A stretch of DNA of 64,000 nucleotides from a virus. The DNA is taken from IMG/VR virus record IMGVR_UViG_3300012351_000009; one strand, 5' to 3'. Positions within the stretch are counted from its first letter, which is position 1. Every line of letters begins with the position of its first letter. A model generated the notes under the pieces. That model ran no database searches and was not told where the DNA came from. It saw only the letters and a program-made list of their open reading frames with translations. Made by a program: the position numbers and the translations under genes. Positions 1 to 62,927 of the stretch are shown piece after piece.

Positions 1-774
1 CAGGATGCACGCGGCCGGGCCGCGGCCGGCCAGCAGGGTGGACTCCTTGGGGTAGACCCCGAAGCTGGCCAAGTCCTTGGTCGAGCGGATGCCGCGCTCG
101 GCCAGCTTGATCATCCGCTGCTCGTCGTGCGGGGCGAAGATCGTGATGGACTCGCCCTGGGGCTCGGAGATGTACGGCGCGTAGCAGTTAGACCCGACGA
201 TCGCGTTGTACAGGTCGCCCCACAGGTTGGCCTTGGCCTGCTCCTTCTTGCCCGCGAAGATCATCACCGCGAGCTGCTTGTCGCGGTCGATGCCGTAGAA
301 GTCCTGGGGGTCGCCGCGGGCCAGGTAGGCCCACAGCACGTAGGCCATCGCCAGCGAGCACACATAGCCCTTGGAGCCGCGGCGGCCGACGGCCATCAGG
401 ACTTCCTTGAACCACCGGTAGCCGCGCTCTTTCAGCCAGGCGATGCGCTCGTAAATGTCCGGCTGGATCCCGTTGGTCTTGGCCTGGAACTTGTTGTCCG
501 GGCCGGCATTGGGATTGGTCGCGTGGAACTCGGCGATCCACTCCGCAATGACCTGGTGGTCGTACTCGGTGAACAAGTCGTCGCGCAGGAAGATGATCTT
601 CAGCAAGGTGGCCTGGCGCGGGTAGAGATTGGGCCGGTCCAGCCAGGCCTCGCCGATGACGAAGCTGATCGGGTCGGGCAGCTGCGGCCCGTCGACCGCA
701 TCGAAAGTCGACCAGAAACCGTCCGCCGCGGTGATGGTGCCGGGGATTACCTCAGTGAGAGTGCCCGTGGCCAT
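1..774 (-). CDS. terL: Terminase large subunit, N-terminal part (runs off left end of window)
   Basis: Manual translation from ATG at 774: MATGTLTEV...LYPRQATLLKIIF...EVLMAVGRRGSKGYVCSLAMAY...AGKKEQAK...KESTLLAGRG. GRRGSK is the terminase Walker A. No stop before base 1, so the ORF track misses it. Confidence 0.85.
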   Translation of the reverse strand, partial: MATGTLTEVIPGTITAADGFWSTFDAVDGPQLPDPISFVIGEAWLDRPNLYPRQATLLKIIFLRDDLFTEYDHQVIAEWIAEFHATNPNAGPDNKFQAKTNGIQPDIYERIAWLKERGYRWFKEVLMAVGRRGSKGYVCSLAMAYVLWAYLARGDPQDFYGIDRDKQLAVMIFAGKKEQAKANLWGDLYNAIVGSNCYAPYISEPQGESITIFAPHDEQRMIKLAERGIRSTKDLASFGVYPKESTLLAGRGPAACIL

Positions 775-2344: not shown

Positions 2345-2663
2345 CACGTTCCTCCGGGATGTTCTCGAATGCTGCGCAGAGATGCTGGAGCGCTTCGAGG
2401 GCATAGTCGGAGACCGGGCGCGTCCCGTCGGTCTTCATCAGGCGGGCCGCGTCGGCATCTGGCATGTCCAGGTAGAGGCAGTGAACCGCCATGGCCTGCA
2501 CGGGATCCAGCTGCCGGCTCAGCTCATACAGCCTCAGGATGTCGGCCAGGACGTAGATGTCGCCATCAGGACCCGTCAGCGAGTCGATGCCCTCAGCCTC
2601 GTACAGAGACTGCCAGGCCTGGAGGTGCCGCATTAGCGACTCCAGTACTGACGGGACCAGCAA
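2004..2663 (-). CDS. Sigma-70 region-4-like DNA-binding protein (meaningful part about 2345-2633)
   Basis: LDPVQAMAVHCLYLDMPDADAARLMK...VSDYALEALQHL fits the sigma r4 HTH pattern; the C-terminal half looks like off-frame read-through over the next gene. Confidence 0.5.
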   Translation of the reverse strand: MLVPSVLESLMRHLQAWQSLYEAEGIDSLTGPDGDIYVLADILRLYELSRQLDPVQAMAVHCLYLDMPDADAARLMKTDGTRPVSDYALEALQHLCAAFENIPEERDDGTDSGHEHAPGEAEAEARGLPLPGRHSRRPDRGVAGGGDLADGQVRHPDQVERGGPGPPGDPHVNGFRRSGRAQGHVPQGVELPAFAPQLARRFLPVPAHPGLPRLRQRGR

Positions 2664-2769
2664 CCTCTCCCTCCGACCGGAAAACTCAGTAAAAATAGAG
2701 CCTGATCCCTGTCAGTTAATCACGCCACAGAAGGGTAGGTATAGCTGAAGTCGTTGCTGGTCAGAAGGC

Positions 2770-2784
2770 TATCAAAGTACCTTA
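2770..2784 (-). promoter_or_regulatory. Phage promoter-like motif TAAGGT-AC-TTTGATA
   Basis: AT-rich intergenic; -10-like hexamer followed by TTGATA, repeated at many intergenic sites. Confidence 0.55.
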
Positions 2785-2785
2785 A

Positions 2786-3493
2786 TCAAATCCTGGCCGA
2801 CTTCAGGAGCATGTCCTCCAGCCGCTCCAGGCTGCGCACCAGGGCGTCGGCCCGCTTGGACAGGATCGCCTGGAAGATCGCGAAATAGCGCTCCTCGATG
2901 CTGGCCAGGTGGCCCTCCTGGGTGCGGTCGTCGATCGTCAGCTTGCCCCGTGACGCATCCCGCGGCGAGGTGTAGCCCCAGGCGAAGGCCTCCTCCCAGA
3001 TGCCCTTGGCGAACATGGCCGAGCCCCACATGACCGCGGCCTGCTGGCGCCACTCGAACAGGTGGATGGCCAGCTCGTGCAGGAGGTCATTGCGCTGAGC
3101 ATCACCGAGCCGGGACCAGTCCTCGATGTAGAAGCCCATCTCGTTGCGGCGCCAGCGGGGGTGGCCCACCAGGTCCCTGACCGGCTCGCCGCTGCCGGTG
3201 ATCAGGGGTTCGCGCACGACGCGGTGCACGCGCTCCAGCAGCCAGTAGGCATCGGCAAAGCGCTGGGCCATCACCTGGTCGGCGATCCGGCCGATCTCAG
3301 CGACCTTGATCTTGTCCTCGCCACCCCACTCGGTGCGCATCCGGCTGAAGTTGACGCTGCGAAAACGCCGGGTCCGGTCGGGCGGGATGTCGGGGGCCAT
3401 CGGCTGCTCGGCGGTGCCCTGGGGCAGCTGGTCAGCTTCCTTGCGGATCCGGTCCAGCTGGGCTGCCTGCCGGCCGTCGTCCGTCTGGCCCAT
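2786..3493 (-). CDS. Hypothetical helical protein
   Basis: Track ORF 2786..3541, likely start MGQTDDG at 3493 after GGGAGAG RBS. Confidence 0.7.
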   Translation of the reverse strand: MGQTDDGRQAAQLDRIRKEADQLPQGTAEQPMAPDIPPDRTRRFRSVNFSRMRTEWGGEDKIKVAEIGRIADQVMAQRFADAYWLLERVHRVVREPLITGSGEPVRDLVGHPRWRRNEMGFYIEDWSRLGDAQRNDLLHELAIHLFEWRQQAAVMWGSAMFAKGIWEEAFAWGYTSPRDASRGKLTIDDRTQEGHLASIEERYFAIFQAILSKRADALVRSLERLEDMLLKSARI

Positions 3494-6312: not shown

Positions 6313-7097
6313 CAGAGCGTCGGCGGCGGCCCCACCCGCACCCGCAGCGCCCCGTCGATGTACAGCAGGCCGCTGCGCACCACGACGTCGTTGACATACA
6401 GGCGCACCCAGCCCATGCCCCTGTCATAGCGGACAGAGCTGATGCCGTAATCGTTGACGCGACCGTCTGCAGCGACGCTGTAGCCCTTGCTCTCCAGGCC
6501 CAGGCTGTCCGGCTCGTCGGTCCCGTGCCGGGAGTCGATGACCAGGCACGGCCACATCTCATGCGGCGGCGGCGGCAGGTGGCTCGGGTAGGTGCCGTGC
6601 AGCGCCGGCGGGGACGCCGGATCCGTAAACAGACTGTCCGGGCGGATCGTCCTCAGCGGATGCGCCTGCCTCTCAGCTTCGGCCAGGGCGTCCCGGGCTT
6701 CCGCGGAGATGCGGCCAGCCTCCAGCAGGGCCTGCTCGGCCCCGGCCGACAGGCGGGCTGCGGCCAGCAGCTCGCCGTAGTCGGCCGCCGGGATGGCGAT
6801 CCAGTCCTCGTCGACCTGCTGAAGATCATCGGTGCCGTAGAAGCGCAGCCCGAGCTGGGGCCGCTCACTGGCCGCCTGCTCGCGGATCTTGGTGATCATG
6901 TCCCGGCTGACGGCGATCGACTGGCCGCGGGTCGACTTGCCGTCCCAGGCGAAGGCGAAATGCTCGGTCAGCTCGTTGCCCCGCCCGTCAGCCTGGTCCT
7001 TCCAGGTCGAGCCCGAGGCCTTGGACTTCCGGCCGCCGTTCAGCCCGGCCAGGAACTCCTCGTGCAGCTCGCCCATCCTGGCCCTGTCCGGCGCCAT
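6312..7097 (-). CDS. Hjc-type Holliday junction resolvase-like nuclease with C-terminal extension
   Basis: GELHEEFLA...SGSTWKDQADG...WDGKST...ITKIREQA...LRF pattern; start MAPDRAR at 7097. Confidence 0.6.
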   Translation of the reverse strand: MAPDRARMGELHEEFLAGLNGGRKSKASGSTWKDQADGRGNELTEHFAFAWDGKSTRGQSIAVSRDMITKIREQAASERPQLGLRFYGTDDLQQVDEDWIAIPAADYGELLAAARLSAGAEQALLEAGRISAEARDALAEAERQAHPLRTIRPDSLFTDPASPPALHGTYPSHLPPPPHEMWPCLVIDSRHGTDEPDSLGLESKGYSVAADGRVNDYGISSVRYDRGMGWVRLYVNDVVVRSGLLYIDGALRVRVGPPPTL

Positions 7098-7098
7098 C

Positions 7099-7368
7099 TC
7101 ACTTCCCCAGCCAGGCGCGGCTGCGTTCGCTGTCTGGCGTCCGCACCTTATCCGGGTTGTCCTCCTGCCAGCGGATGAACCGGGCCATGGTCTCGGCAAC
7201 CAGCCGCAAATGCCGCACCGGACTGCCGCCCTCGTCGCACAGCCTGAGGTAATGCGCGAGCACGCCCCGCGTCCTGATATCCCTGGCCCGGAACACGATG
7301 ACAGGCTCGTCATCCGGGATATCGCCATGCTCGGTGGTAACCCGGCCGTACTTGCCGTCAAACCCCAT
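7099..7368 (-). CDS. Hypothetical protein
   Basis: Track ORF 89 aa with RBS. Confidence 0.65.
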   Translation of the reverse strand: MGFDGKYGRVTTEHGDIPDDEPVIVFRARDIRTRGVLAHYLRLCDEGGSPVRHLRLVAETMARFIRWQEDNPDKVRTPDSERSRAWLGK

Positions 7369-7380
7369 CAGGTGCTCCTC

Positions 7381-8172
7381 CTAGTCGGGCACGGTGTCTT
7401 CGATGACCTGCGTCGGCATGTCATCAGCGCTGATGATCTGCGTGTCGGCGCTGGCCGCCTGGCGGTACATCGCCGCGCGCTCGGTCTCAGCGTTGCTGAA
7501 CGAGCCGTTGGGGTACAGGTGCTCGGCGGGCACGCTGTCAGTCCAGGCCCGTTCCATGTCCGCCTCACTCCAGGAGAACCTCTCGCCCGGCTCGTCGCCG
7601 GACAGCTCCCGCAGCGCCTCGACACCGACGTCGGTATGCCGGCCCAGTGAGAGGATCTCCTCCTCGGTCAGGCTCCGGATCACGGCGTCGCCGTGCTCGT
7701 CAAACCCGTCGCAGACCACCATCCTGTTATCGCCCGCCCACTTCATCATCATCATGTCGCCCTTGCGCAGGGTGAAGCTGACGTCGTGCGGGCCGGGGCG
7801 GCGGTAGCCGTTGATGGAGAACTGGGCGTCGGGCAGCTCGACGATACCGGGCAGCAGGTGCAGCCGGGTCAGGTCCTGCTTGTACAGCCAGGCGAGGAAC
7901 TCCTCGAACAGCGGGCAGACCCAGATGCGGTGCTTCTCCAGGTCGGCGCGGGCATTGCCGCCGTGCCGGAACCAGGCACCCTCGCCGGTCGCGAGGTCGC
8001 AGACCAGGATGTGCACCGGGGTCCAGCCGATCCGCTCCAGCAGCGGGTACTGATTCTCGGCTTCGACCAGGCTGCCCCGGCCCCACTCCATATCGGGGAT
8101 GCCGACCAGGAACTTGCCCCAGTTCAAGGGCACGCCGTGCTCCTGGACACCCTCGAATATGAACGTCTTCAT
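7381..8172 (-). CDS. Hypothetical protein (MKTFIFEG...)
   Basis: ATGA overlap with recA stop; upstream part of the track ORF is a recA shadow. Confidence 0.65.
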   Translation of the reverse strand: MKTFIFEGVQEHGVPLNWGKFLVGIPDMEWGRGSLVEAENQYPLLERIGWTPVHILVCDLATGEGAWFRHGGNARADLEKHRIWVCPLFEEFLAWLYKQDLTRLHLLPGIVELPDAQFSINGYRRPGPHDVSFTLRKGDMMMMKWAGDNRMVVCDGFDEHGDAVIRSLTEEEILSLGRHTDVGVEALRELSGDEPGERFSWSEADMERAWTDSVPAEHLYPNGSFSNAETERAAMYRQAASADTQIISADDMPTQVIEDTVPD

Positions 8173-15904: not shown

Positions 15905-16284
15905 CAGGCCAGCTGACCAGGGGCCACGCAGGATCGCATCCGCGGATGATCACGGGCAAGCAGCACCGTGGACGTGAACACGCCGCTTCCCCGGGACCTG
16001 TTCCTGGCGCACCATCTCAGGAACAGCTCGCGCGGGCTCGGCTTACCAGGGGACGGGCGGACATCGGAGTAACTGCCAGCCTCCGTATCAGGCAGCGTCA
16101 TGATCAGCTGCTGGGCAAGGCGCTTGGGCTCCGCGACGGAGCACTCCCGCCAGGCGCCCGACTCGCAGATCATCCACGTTCCGTCCTTCCCCTTCCCCGG
16201 GAGGAACCTGAGCTGGCTGGCGAACCGGTCCACGAGCCTGTCGCACAGACCGAAATCGTCCCAGGGGTGAACCGTTACTGCCAT
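15904..16284 (-). CDS. Stand-alone D5_N-like protein, paralog of the primase-helicase middle domain
   Basis: WDDFGLCDRLVDR, WMICESGAW, GKPSPRELF, ARDHP align with WDDFGLGDRLVNR, WMICLNGAW, GKPSPRMLF, ARDHP in 16656..19217. Confidence 0.7.
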   Translation of the reverse strand: MAVTVHPWDDFGLCDRLVDRFASQLRFLPGKGKDGTWMICESGAWRECSVAEPKRLAQQLIMTLPDTEAGSYSDVRPSPGKPSPRELFLRWCARNRSRGSGVFTSTVLLARDHPRMRSCVAPGQLA

Positions 16285-24448: not shown

Positions 24449-24964
24449 TCAGGCCTCGATCTCGCATCCGAGGGTGTACAGGTGCGAGGTCGGCAGCGCG
24501 TTACCGACGTTGAACAGGGCGATCCCGTTCGCGTTCGCCGCAATCGGCTGGATCATCAGCTCCTCCAGCAGCTCCCAGGGCAGGTCCACCGTCGCCTGGG
24601 TGTTGAAGCTGACCTCCCAGAAGTACGGTGCCGTCCAGACCGCCGTCGGAGCCGCCGACCAGGCGGTGTCGATCCCGGGGTTGTTCGGCAGGGTGGCGTA
24701 GCCGGCCATGTCGTTCCAGGCCGATGTGGCCGTCGCGGTCCCGCGGGTGGTGGACCGGGTGAACGCCACGGTGCACTGCATCGAGGTCGGCGCCGCTGAG
24801 GTGGCGCGCACGCCCAGCGTCAGGCGCCGCACCCGGACGAGGCTGCCGCCCGCGGCCGTCGAGCCCAGGATGTTGGCGAAGAGCCCGTTCGTGGCGCCTG
24901 CGGAGACAGGCGCCGTCGCGACCAGGGCCGCGGCTGACTCGACCGTTGCCGTGTACCGTGCCAT
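24449..24964 (-). CDS. Virion structural/decoration protein (MARYTATVES...)
   Basis: Ala/Thr-rich beta-type sequence; GGGAGG RBS. Confidence 0.6.
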   Translation of the reverse strand: MARYTATVESAAALVATAPVSAGATNGLFANILGSTAAGGSLVRVRRLTLGVRATSAAPTSMQCTVAFTRSTTRGTATATSAWNDMAGYATLPNNPGIDTAWSAAPTAVWTAPYFWEVSFNTQATVDLPWELLEELMIQPIAANANGIALFNVGNALPTSHLYTLGCEIEA

Positions 24965-25026
24965 CGGGCCTCCCTGAGGAAACGTTCGCTGTCCCTTCCG
25001 GGGCGAGGCACGCTGGCGCATTCATG

Positions 25027-25043
25027 TGCTATATTTATTGATA
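25027..25043 (+). promoter_or_regulatory. Extended -10 promoter TGCTATATT plus TATTGATA, upstream of array 1
   Basis: TGn-TANNNT consensus, intergenic. Confidence 0.65.
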
Positions 25044-25154
25044 GATCCTGGCCTGCTGGGAAGAGAGGTCGCAAAGGAAGCGCTCGCGACTGGCAATCGC
25101 GGATAGGACGGCCGAACGTAGCGGCGCAGGGCGATCCTGCATCGTTGGCCGGCG

Positions 25155-25650
25155 TTCCCCCAGCAGGCCGGGCTCAGGCAGTCAGAGCGTGGCAGTGCGC
25201 GGCGAGGCATCACAAGGCTGGGCTCGGCAGCCGAGGTAAGGCAAAGCCAGTCAGGGCGCGGCGCAGCCTGGGAGGCGAGGCAGCCGAGGCGAAGCGTGGC
25301 GTTGCCAGTCCAAGCGCGGCTTTGCATGGCCTGGCCTGGCAGTCAAGGCCGGGCGAGGCGCAGCCAGGACAGCTCAGCCTGGCGGCGCGTGGCGTGGTCC
25401 AGCAGGGCGGTCTTGGCTGGGCACCGCGCCGAAAGGCTAGGCGTGGCAGGGCATGGCAGCCGAGGCATGGCGTGACCAGGCGAAGCGCGGCTGGGTACGG
25501 CAGTCAGAGCATGGCCGGGCCTGGCTGGGCATGGCCAGGCAGTCAAGGCAAGGCACGGCCGGGTCTGTCGCGTCCTGGCGAGGCTAGGCAGTCAAGGCAA
25601 GGCAGGGCCGTGCACAGAATGGCCCGGCGAGGCGAGGCGCAGCAGCCAAG
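25155..25650 (+). ncRNA. Array 1: NN-GGC pentamer units separated by AGYC (putative guide-RNA array, VIPR-like)
   Basis: e.g. 25545-25593 AAGGC AAGGC ACGGC CGGGT CTGTC GCGTC CTGGC GAGGC TAGGC AGTC. The repeat is certain; the RNA function is inferred. Confidence 0.7.
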
Positions 25651-25658
25651 ATAAGGGC

Positions 25659-25805
25659 ATGGCTGACGACAAGGACAAGGACGAGGACAAGACCGAGAAG
25701 GTCAAGGAGATCCTGAAGAAGGACGCCAAGGGCGGCTCGCAGAGCACCGACCCCAAGGCGCTGAAGAAGATCCAGAAGCGGACCAAGAAGCCGGGGAAGA
25801 GCTAG
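25659..25805 (+). CDS. 48-aa Lys/Asp-rich small protein directly after array 1
   Basis: MADDKDKDEDKTEKVKEILKKDAKGGSQSTDPKALKKIQKRTKKPGKS; AAGGG RBS; below the ORF-track size cutoff. Confidence 0.55.
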   Translation: MADDKDKDEDKTEKVKEILKKDAKGGSQSTDPKALKKIQKRTKKPGKS

Positions 25806-26029
25806 TACTGCCCCGTCGTCGTCTGCTTCAGGATCTGCGCCGTGGTCAGCGTGTAGGTCGTGTCGACGAAGCCGAAGTCGGTCGTGCCCGCGGCCGGGAT
25901 CGCGCCGTTGCCCATCGTGGCCTCGCTGCTGTCGGCCAGGTCGTGGCCGGACTGGACCAGGGTCGCGTCGGCGGGCACGTAGCTCAGCGCGGTCGGCGTC
26001 CCGCCGTAGACCTGCGGCCAGGTCGCCAT
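25802..26029 (-). CDS. Small structural protein (MATWPQVYGG...)
   Basis: TGATG coupling to the upstream gene. Confidence 0.55.
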   Translation of the reverse strand: MATWPQVYGGTPTALSYVPADATLVQSGHDLADSSEATMGNGAIPAAGTTDFGFVDTTYTLTTAQILKQTTTGQY

Positions 26030-43272: not shown

Positions 43273-43803
43273 ATGCACCGGAGAAAATGGCACGGCCTGA
43301 CACTGACCGGCTGGCTGGGCTTCGTCTCCGGCGCTGCCCTGCTCGCCGCGGGCGCCTTCTTCCTTACGCTGAGGCTGCTCTCGATCGTCGACCCGCAGCA
43401 GGCCGTCCCGGCTGCTCAGGTGACGGGCCCGGTCAGCCCGGCGGCACCGGCCATCACCAAGGGTCATCCACCGCCGGCCAGGCCGGCTCACCGGCCGACC
43501 CGGGGCGGGCTCGCCTCTATCCCGGGATTCCCGGGGGCGGGTACTCCCGGGATCGCCTCGTCGTCATCGCGCCCGGCCCGGTCGTCGCCTGCCCCGGCAC
43601 CCCGGCCGCCGTCATCGACGGCCGCGCCCTCACCGACGCCGGACCCCACGCCCAGCGGCACGCCGACACCGACGACCCCGACGGGCACGCCTGGCCCGTC
43701 GAGTCCTCCCGGCACACCGCCGCCCAGCACGGCCAGCGAAACACCGTCCTCACCGGAGCCCGGCTTCAGTATCGGGCTGACTGGTAGCGGGGGCGGGATT
43801 TGA
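43273..43803 (+). CDS. Membrane-anchored Pro/Ser/Thr-rich protein
   Basis: N-terminal hydrophobic helix WLGFVSGAALLAAGAFFLTL followed by a low-complexity PST tail; AGGAG RBS. Confidence 0.6.
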   Translation: MHRRKWHGLTLTGWLGFVSGAALLAAGAFFLTLRLLSIVDPQQAVPAAQVTGPVSPAAPAITKGHPPPARPAHRPTRGGLASIPGFPGAGTPGIASSSSRPARSSPAPAPRPPSSTAAPSPTPDPTPSGTPTPTTPTGTPGPSSPPGTPPPSTASETPSSPEPGFSIGLTGSGGGI

Positions 43804-43859
43804 ACCCGCGAGCCTCTGGGTTATGAGCCCAGCGTGCTACCGAACTGCACCACCCCGCG
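43782..43859 (-). tRNA. Initiator tRNA-fMet (CAT)
   Basis: CGCGGGGTGGTGCAGTTCGGTAGCACGCTGGGCTCATAACCCAGAGGCTCGCGGGTTCAAATCCCGCCCCCGCTACCA: C1:A72-type mismatch, three G:C pairs in the anticodon stem, TTCAAAT T-loop, encoded CCA. Confidence 0.92.
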
Positions 43860-50113: not shown

Positions 50114-50127
50114 TATATTCATTGATA
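50114..50127 (+). promoter_or_regulatory. -10 TATATT plus CATTGATA, upstream of array 4
   Basis: Recurrent motif followed by a 14-bp stem-loop. Confidence 0.6.
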
Positions 50128-50172
50128 GGCCTTGCACCAGAGCGAGCACTGGCGCAAGGCCTGTCCTCCTCG

Positions 50173-62091: not shown

Positions 62092-62108
62092 TGCTATGAT
62101 TATTGATA
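62092..62108 (+). promoter_or_regulatory. Extended -10 TGCTATGAT plus TATTGATA, upstream of array 6
   Basis: Recurrent motif. Confidence 0.65.
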
Positions 62109-62189
62109 GTCCCTGCTCGGAGCCCGCCAGGTGCGCTGCAGCGGAGGCATACGAAACCCGGAGCCTTTCGACACCATTTAGGCAGTAAT

Positions 62190-62927
62190 CAGTACCGGCT
62201 CCGGGCAGGGCACCGGCAGGAACCAGCTCGGCTTCTCACGGAATAGCAGGGTGTGGCTCGGCATAGCCGTCAGGGTCAGGCTCAGCTTGCCAGGGTGCGC
62301 TGGGCCCGGCAGTCGCCTCGGGGATTGGCATCGCGCGGAGTGCTGGTCGAGGCATGGCAGTCGTCTCGGGGCTTGGCGGGGCAAGGCTAAGGCATGGCAA
62401 GGCTTGGCCGGAGGGCAGTGCTCGGCCGGGCCAGGAGGGCATATCTAGGCGGGGCCGGATGGGCGAGGCGTACCTGGGCGTCGCTCGGCGGGGCCGTCAA
62501 GGCATGGCAACGCCAGGCGCGGCGCAGTATGGCGCGGCCAGGCAGTCGCGGCATGGCATCCCTGGGCCGGGATTGGCAGTGTTTGGCGTGGGCCGCTCGG
62601 CGGTCAAGGCGCGGCGTCGCTCGGCTCGGAACGCAGGGCACAGCAGTCATAGCGCGGAGCGGAATGGCCAGCCTGGCCTGGCAAAGCTGGGCATGGCGCG
62701 GCAGTCGCCGCAGGGCAGAGCAAGGTGCGGCCCGGCGTCGCTCGGCCGGGCACGGCGGTCATAGCTTGGCCAGGAGCGGCAGGGCCAGGATCGGCCCGGC
62801 TAGGTGCGGCTCGGCAGTCGTAGCGCGGCAACGCTGGGCGGAGCGGGGCAGGTTTTGGCATGGCGCGGCAGTTCAGGCGGTGCGGCGCGCAGCCTGGACC
62901 GGCACGGTTCGGCGTGGTGAGGCAGTC
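62190..62927 (+). ncRNA. Array 6: largest NN-GGC pentamer array
   Basis: 62761-62819 = ATAGC TTGGC CAGGA GCGGC AGGGC CAGGA TCGGC CCGGC TAGGT GCGGC TCGGC AGTC. Confidence 0.72.

Follow-up and report, generated by a model that had tools for sequence, protein, structure and literature searches.

VIPR is a phage gene-silencing system, described in 2026, whose guides consist of alternating GGY/NN repeats in which the NN pairs read DNA while skipping one base (10.64898/2026.04.26.720920); VIPR structures are presented in 10.64898/2026.04.26.720927. Published guides of the SUSP1 type comprise 9–16 repeats. Staggered arrays are one of the described types (10.64898/2026.04.26.720920, fig. S18), and vrRNA arrays interspersed with ribozymes, in which hammerheads have been reported, are another (10.64898/2026.04.26.720920, fig. 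S19). Solo or orphan vrRNAs, that is, one or two guides encoded away from vipr in vipr-null elements, have also been described (10.64898/2026.10.15.759431).

The locus analysed here (positions 25027–25805) resembles the staggered VIPR arrays in its GGY/NN pentamers, its hypervariable NN positions and the one-base phase shift between its units, as well as in being phage-borne and in having close relatives that carry a vipr-vap-array operon. It differs from them in lying far from vipr, as one of eight or more satellite arrays that sit between virion genes under their own promoters, in having no pseudoknot tail, in its units of 7–13 pentamers with a relaxed scaffold, and in being joined 5′ to a structured leader of no known family and 3′ to an unrelated small gene. 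Like the solo vrRNAs its guides are encoded away from vipr, but there are dozens of them in this phage rather than one or two, and vipr is probably present in the same genome. Like the ribozyme-interspersed arrays it has a folded RNA element adjoining the guides, but its leader lacks a hammerhead core and is single, at the 5′ end. We consider it about 80% probable that this DNA holds a distal, staggered array of VIPR guides that has its own promoter and lies antisense between virion genes, with a 48-aa gene as a passenger.

The cassette occupies a site that is found in three states

The window (the whole 64,000-nt stretch of DNA that was analysed) comes from a tailed phage of high GC content (68%) that has Rpf/NlpC genes and encodes a GH25 endolysin. 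Identical copies are present in soil metagenomes, the longest such contig being 158,810 bp, and we take the virus to be an actinobacterial-type soil phage with a genome of about 159 kb. All of the soil copies of the cassette (8/8) are 100% identical and so yield no variation data. The phage also has a single tRNA-Met gene among its baseplate genes (window 43782–43859, minus strand), and head-region proteins with Arr-ms (ADP-ribosyltransferase-like) Pfam matches are encoded at L089:3857-4228 and L100:1959-6506.

The cassette consists, in order, of a promoter, a folded leader, a staggered GGY/NN pentamer array and a 48-codon ORF. Six arrays lie within the window and two just beyond it, which makes at least eight in the phage; the two to the right of the window are large (L089:4950-6135 and 6800-7480), lie between virion genes and contain some units whose NN positions are conserved in the relative G010.

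To the left of the insertion site is a 171-aa virion-region gene (24449–24964, minus strand), whose homologue in the array-less phage G001 is 58% identical. The left edge of the cassette is marked by a CCGGAAG motif upstream of this gene (24995–25003, minus strand), which G001 has at its empty site and G011 at the corresponding position, and which is probably a late-gene signal. At the right edge a 75-aa gene (25802–26029, minus strand), with homologues in G001 and G011, is convergent with the 48-aa ORF, and the stop codons of the two overlap. The genome of G001 is complete (160,709 bp) and contains neither Vipr nor a staggered array; its homologues of the 75-aa and 171-aa genes are 57 nt apart, compared with 837 nt in the window phage. 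The empty site in G001 thus indicates that an 837-nt cassette was inserted antisense between virion genes. The sites of arrays 3 and 6 are likewise empty in G001.

A third state of the site is seen in the Vipr-positive relative G011, which has a nearly identical promoter followed, about 10 nt downstream, by a 1.9-kb array that ends at the stop codon of the 75-aa homologue and is accompanied by neither the leader nor the 48-aa ORF. No guides are common to this array and array 1, the array of our cassette. Comparison of the two indicates that the promoter and the array are the conserved part of the cassette, and that the leader and the ORF are particular to the window phage.

The array follows the grammar of staggered VIPR guides

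Parsing of the array gives a 5′ stub unit (25173–25185, plus strand), which closes with the first junction, followed on the same strand by vrRNA-like units 1–4 (25186–25414) and 5–9 (25415–25649), with 9, 10, 11, 13, 9, 8, 7, 9 and 10 pentamer positions in that order. An earlier note on this DNA had described five consecutive units of 9, 8, 7, 9 and 10 pentamers, each with a 4-nt junction, and this description is exact (25413/15–25649); its estimate of about a dozen units comes down to nine full units plus the stub, a dozen being reached only if the 4-nt phase slips, one each in units 2 and 4, are counted as boundaries. Other arrays of the phage contain similar slips, so these may represent another type of step and not damage. 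Unit lengths follow 5n+4 (39, 44, 49, 54 and 59 nt), with the one-base phase shift between units that defines the staggered architecture. Seven of the nine units have 9–13 pentamer positions; the other two, with 7 and 8, fall below the published range of 9–16.

GGY-NN-GGY steps number 35, compared with 3.5 ± 1.9 in 1000 dinucleotide shuffles, and junctions number 8, compared with 0.3. About two thirds of the scaffold trimers are GGC or GGT, and the remaining third or so mostly end in a pyrimidine. At the NN positions of the 26 clean units of the phage all 16 dinucleotides are used, with a GC content of 49% against 68% for the genome, and the log-likelihood per NN is about −2.78 under a model of codon positions 1–2 or a uniform model, a much better fit than the −2.95 under genome composition. 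In one unit of another array 18 of 18 NN letters are kept in G010 although the scaffold trimers are different, which points to selection on the NN positions. A 169-codon open frame across the array (25145–25654) fails the codon model, and is open because the repeat is stop-poor.

That the array encodes guides, as had been proposed, is supported both by this grammar and by the company that the junction keeps elsewhere. A search with the junction pattern returned 72 phage loci, at 42 of which the SUSP1 Vipr candidate found a match (E < 0.01) and at 46 of which a derived Vipr profile did so; the derived profile also detects SUSP1 Vipr, the structure of which is solved (PDB 36pp), with an E value of 2.7e-14. 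Searches for targets gave no self-target match of at least 85% in 90 kb, no excess of skip-1 targets in relatives and, for units 3 and 9, no exact target in public viral and genome collections (exact matches only).

A phage-wide promoter precedes the array

The AT-rich promoter motif that had been noticed at 25027–25043 (plus strand) is present as described. It is of the extended −10 type, with a hexamer at 25030–25035 followed by 7 nt and a +1 A at about 25043, and was defined by comparison of sites and not by the sigma-70 consensus, with which a scan returned no promoter. The core of the motif occurs 8 times in the window, where 0.34 occurrences are expected, and is directed into arrays and protein genes alike. 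At 26 of 26 distinct sites with TAnnnT plus 7 nt in the window phage and three relatives the next base is A, and at 7 of them the ATG of an ORF of 51–472 codons is placed exactly at +1, in the fashion of leaderless genes. Leaderless genes at the +1 of an array-type promoter include one of 126 codons in the 16159–16284 region of the window (minus strand) and one of 206 codons at L012:13294. Because leaderless genes use the same motif, we infer that transcription of the cassette starts at about 25043, a promoter register that is well supported. There is no terminator-like site between the array and the 48-aa ORF, which makes it plausible that both are on a single predicted transcript.

In a second class of promoter (window 19721, 21899, 21956 and 51889, and many sites in relatives) the same core is found upstream, rather than downstream, of a −10 hexamer. 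The core common to both classes may serve a phage regulator as its operator.

The leader is predicted to be a folded RNA with a covarying homologue

What had been taken for a non-repetitive leader of about 110 nt is about 130 nt long (25043–25172) and is not featureless. Its sequence from 25047 to 25172 (plus strand) is predicted to form a three-way junction closed by a 14-bp stem, in which 25047–25060 pair with 25159–25172 (z = −3.5; 0/200 shuffles). An origin of the leader from decayed repeats was considered and is not significant (p about 0.06).

A homologue of the leader is found in G001, a phage without arrays or Vipr, where it follows an unrelated gene; this copy stands alone (L110:15075-15170, minus strand) after a gene of 142 aa. 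Both copies have a long closing stem, the sequence of which differs between them, a conserved unpaired 9-mer, a conserved GATAG linker, a 5-bp stem in which three pairs are changed on both sides, a hairpin with a GGCA-containing loop, and one further stem. All inner stems are paired in the G001 copy, with compensatory changes. The similarity in sequence is marginal by itself (2 of 100 shuffles score as high), and the homology is credible because pairing is kept and not because of the sequence score. Rfam holds no family for either copy, giving sub-threshold matches of the miRNA-hairpin type only, and its ribozymes show no match to the leader at E values up to 10. A pattern scan yielded no third copy, the other nine matches being without the stems. 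As judged from these comparisons, we take the leader to be an RNA that folds, that has a single covarying homologue and that fits no known family; its role may lie in processing or in protection.

Two other arrays of the phage also begin with stable predicted structures. The leader of array 6 (window 62108–62213, plus strand) has a long closing stem (z −2.2), a different inner sequence and no Rfam match, and array 4 has a stable hairpin (window 50126–50162, plus strand; z −4.0) directly at its inferred +1. At matching places in G011 (L119 about 190-515, minus strand) and G012 (L124 about 2630-2960, minus strand) a promoter is followed by two hairpins linked by 3–4 pentamers, an element that is probably a small structured RNA.

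An alternative that is compatible with our main reading is that the leader acts autonomously as a catalytic or regulatory RNA, such as a self-cleaving ribozyme not described before, and produces the 5′ end of the first guide. Its long closing stem, the conserved unpaired motifs and the covarying stems in two phages are in keeping with such a role, as are the published hammerheads in VIPR arrays and the 5′ structures of arrays 4 and 6; a new ribozyme is at most a possibility, for which twister-sister-like ribozymes, with their three-way junction, offer a lead. There are, however, only two examples, of marginal sequence similarity, the homologue resides in a phage that has neither arrays nor Vipr, the G011 array at this site does without the leader, and no Rfam ribozyme matches, so that we hold this alternative to be rather unlikely. 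Equally tentative is a broader version, in which an undescribed catalytic or processing RNA was recruited from elsewhere in the phage family and forms or shields the 5′ terminus of a staggered VIPR array, the whole being a mobile cassette of promoter, structured RNA, guides and small gene.

Vipr is probably encoded elsewhere in the phage genome

The array is distal, in that no vipr (a RAMP with a G-loop) is present at its locus. A profile search of the window and of the approximately 22 kb of flanks read (about 86 kb in total) found no vipr. Two relatives, G011 and G012, are colinear with the window phage, with DNA polymerases 72–74% identical to its own, and in both, some 16 kb past the last gene read in the window phage, vipr is present together with a gene of 158–162 aa (vap) and a long array. 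By placing contigs from the phage-bearing runs on G012 we found one that is 83% identical to G012 vipr over 545 nt (codons 53–234, the G-loop included), the differences listed between the two being mostly at third positions. This contig is present in 4/4 runs with the phage, and its depth (19.5, 9.5, 9.0 and 18.8) tracks that of a syntenic head-gene contig (21.3, 10.3, 9.8 and 20.7), although the four runs may be two samples filed twice. On the grounds of depth and synteny, the vipr contig probably belongs to the phage genome. The Vipr proteins of this clade (G011 L117 and G012 L118) are 314–330 aa long, with N- and C-terminal extensions beyond a core of about 200 aa.

These findings bear on whether the phage could be without vipr, in which case its array would be an orphan that supplies guides to Vipr from co-infecting phages. 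The lack of vipr in the 86 kb or so seen would fit such an arrangement, and phages with solo vrRNAs are on record (10.64898/2026.10.15.759431), but relatives keep vipr about 16 kb past the part read, a matching vipr contig co-varies in depth with the phage in the same runs, and eight arrays with dozens of units are far above the one or two solo guides described. We therefore consider an orphan array unlikely.

The 48-aa gene is conserved but appears to be a passenger

The ORF that had been noticed downstream of the array is found, with the sequence given for it, at 25659–25805 (plus strand), after a spacer of 9 nt (25650–25658, plus strand). The ribosome-binding site claimed for it exists as a Shine-Dalgarno-like TAAGG, the sole match, but is a poor one that ends 2 nt before the ATG and is thus too close. 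The ORF has GC at 47 of 48 third codon positions and the top per-codon coding score in the window. Three homologues of the peptide were found by a full HMMER search (72, 62 and 55% identity) and a fourth by cluster look-up, which makes it a member of a small phage family. In the copy from a contig of 46% GC, 19 of 26 core residues are kept, 14 of those 19 with different (synonymous) codons, and the keeping of core residues under changed codons indicates purifying selection on the protein. The comparison supports the view that the ORF is a real gene.

The peptide has no Pfam or PHROG family, no match in annotated phages and no usable match in the ESM Atlas. Translated scans of viral and metagenome contigs also gave no match, a weak result given that a low-complexity 48-mer is hard to confirm. 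It is not homologous to the vap-type gene of 158–162 aa. AlphaFold predicts two helices and a connecting loop (pLDDT 71, pTM 0.31), and the invariant residues fall at positions 18–43, in the central helix-loop-helix, with the Lys/Asp tract being variable.

The earlier note had suggested that the peptide might be a nucleic-acid mimic or an accessory factor of the array. Phage DNA mimics such as Ocr and AcrIIA4 are small, highly charged and strongly acidic. The 48-aa peptide is likewise small and highly charged but is basic (16 K/R and 10 D/E, net +6, pI 9.7); a net charge of +6 rules out an acidic DNA mimic, and mimicry of nucleic acid is unlikely also because the conserved part is the helix-loop-helix and not the Lys/Asp tract. 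Most likely the peptide is a small basic protein that binds either nucleic acid or some acidic protein of the host.

A dedicated accessory function, in which the peptide would cap or chaperone the Vipr filament, aid processing or mimic nucleic acid, could be suspected from the start of the ORF 9 nt past the last junction and from its having entered the site, relative to G001, together with the array. Linkage to arrays in other phages, which had been proposed as a check, tells against it. Homologues with readable DNA are array-free, P0123, P0125 and P0124 (two contexts) lying amid small phage genes with no pentamer array. For P0122 (ENA ERZ27264997), the closest homologue, the ORF called upstream stops 5 nt short of the start codon and might be an array. 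Conversely, the array at the same site in G011 has no such ORF behind it, the peptide was not found in the parts read of three array-rich relatives (G010–G012), and none of the other arrays of the phage is followed by a homologue. With an acidic mimic excluded by charge as well, we regard an accessory function as very unlikely and judge, from the distribution of homologues, that the 48-aa gene is a passenger and not a component of VIPR.

Finally, it is extremely improbable that the stretch is repeat DNA that has decayed and lost its function, with an ORF present by chance, since the two phase slips, the many non-GGY trimers and the lack of targets found are outweighed by an intact promoter, NN-specific conservation between phages, and a 48-aa ORF that shows purifying selection and whose coding score per codon is unsurpassed in the window.

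Discussion

Under our main reading, a distal staggered guide array with a passenger gene, the phage-wide promoter would start an RNA at about 25043, as the leaderless genes with the same motif suggest, and the 5′ end of this RNA would be capped by the 130-nt leader, given its predicted fold and its conservation in one homologue. Cutting at the 4-nt junctions, as in the published staggered type, would release about nine vrRNAs of 39–68 nt. These vrRNAs would be loaded on Vipr made from a vipr-vap operon located elsewhere in the genome of about 159 kb, as such an operon is in the relatives. By the known mechanism, their NN pairs would read foreign DNA through the 1-nt-skip code, and genes belonging to competing elements would be silenced. 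The 48-aa gene would share the array promoter and make up what is left of the transcript at its 3′ end.

Our analysis removes the idea of a new system composed of guides and a micro-protein, and leaves the folded leader RNA as the remaining lead. It adds to the phages with VIPR an actinobacterial-type clade in which the guides are distributed among many arrays, each with a separate promoter, that are inserted between virion genes. A site that is empty in one phage, holds only an array in another, and holds an array with a leader and a gene in a third shows the gain and turnover of such arrays.
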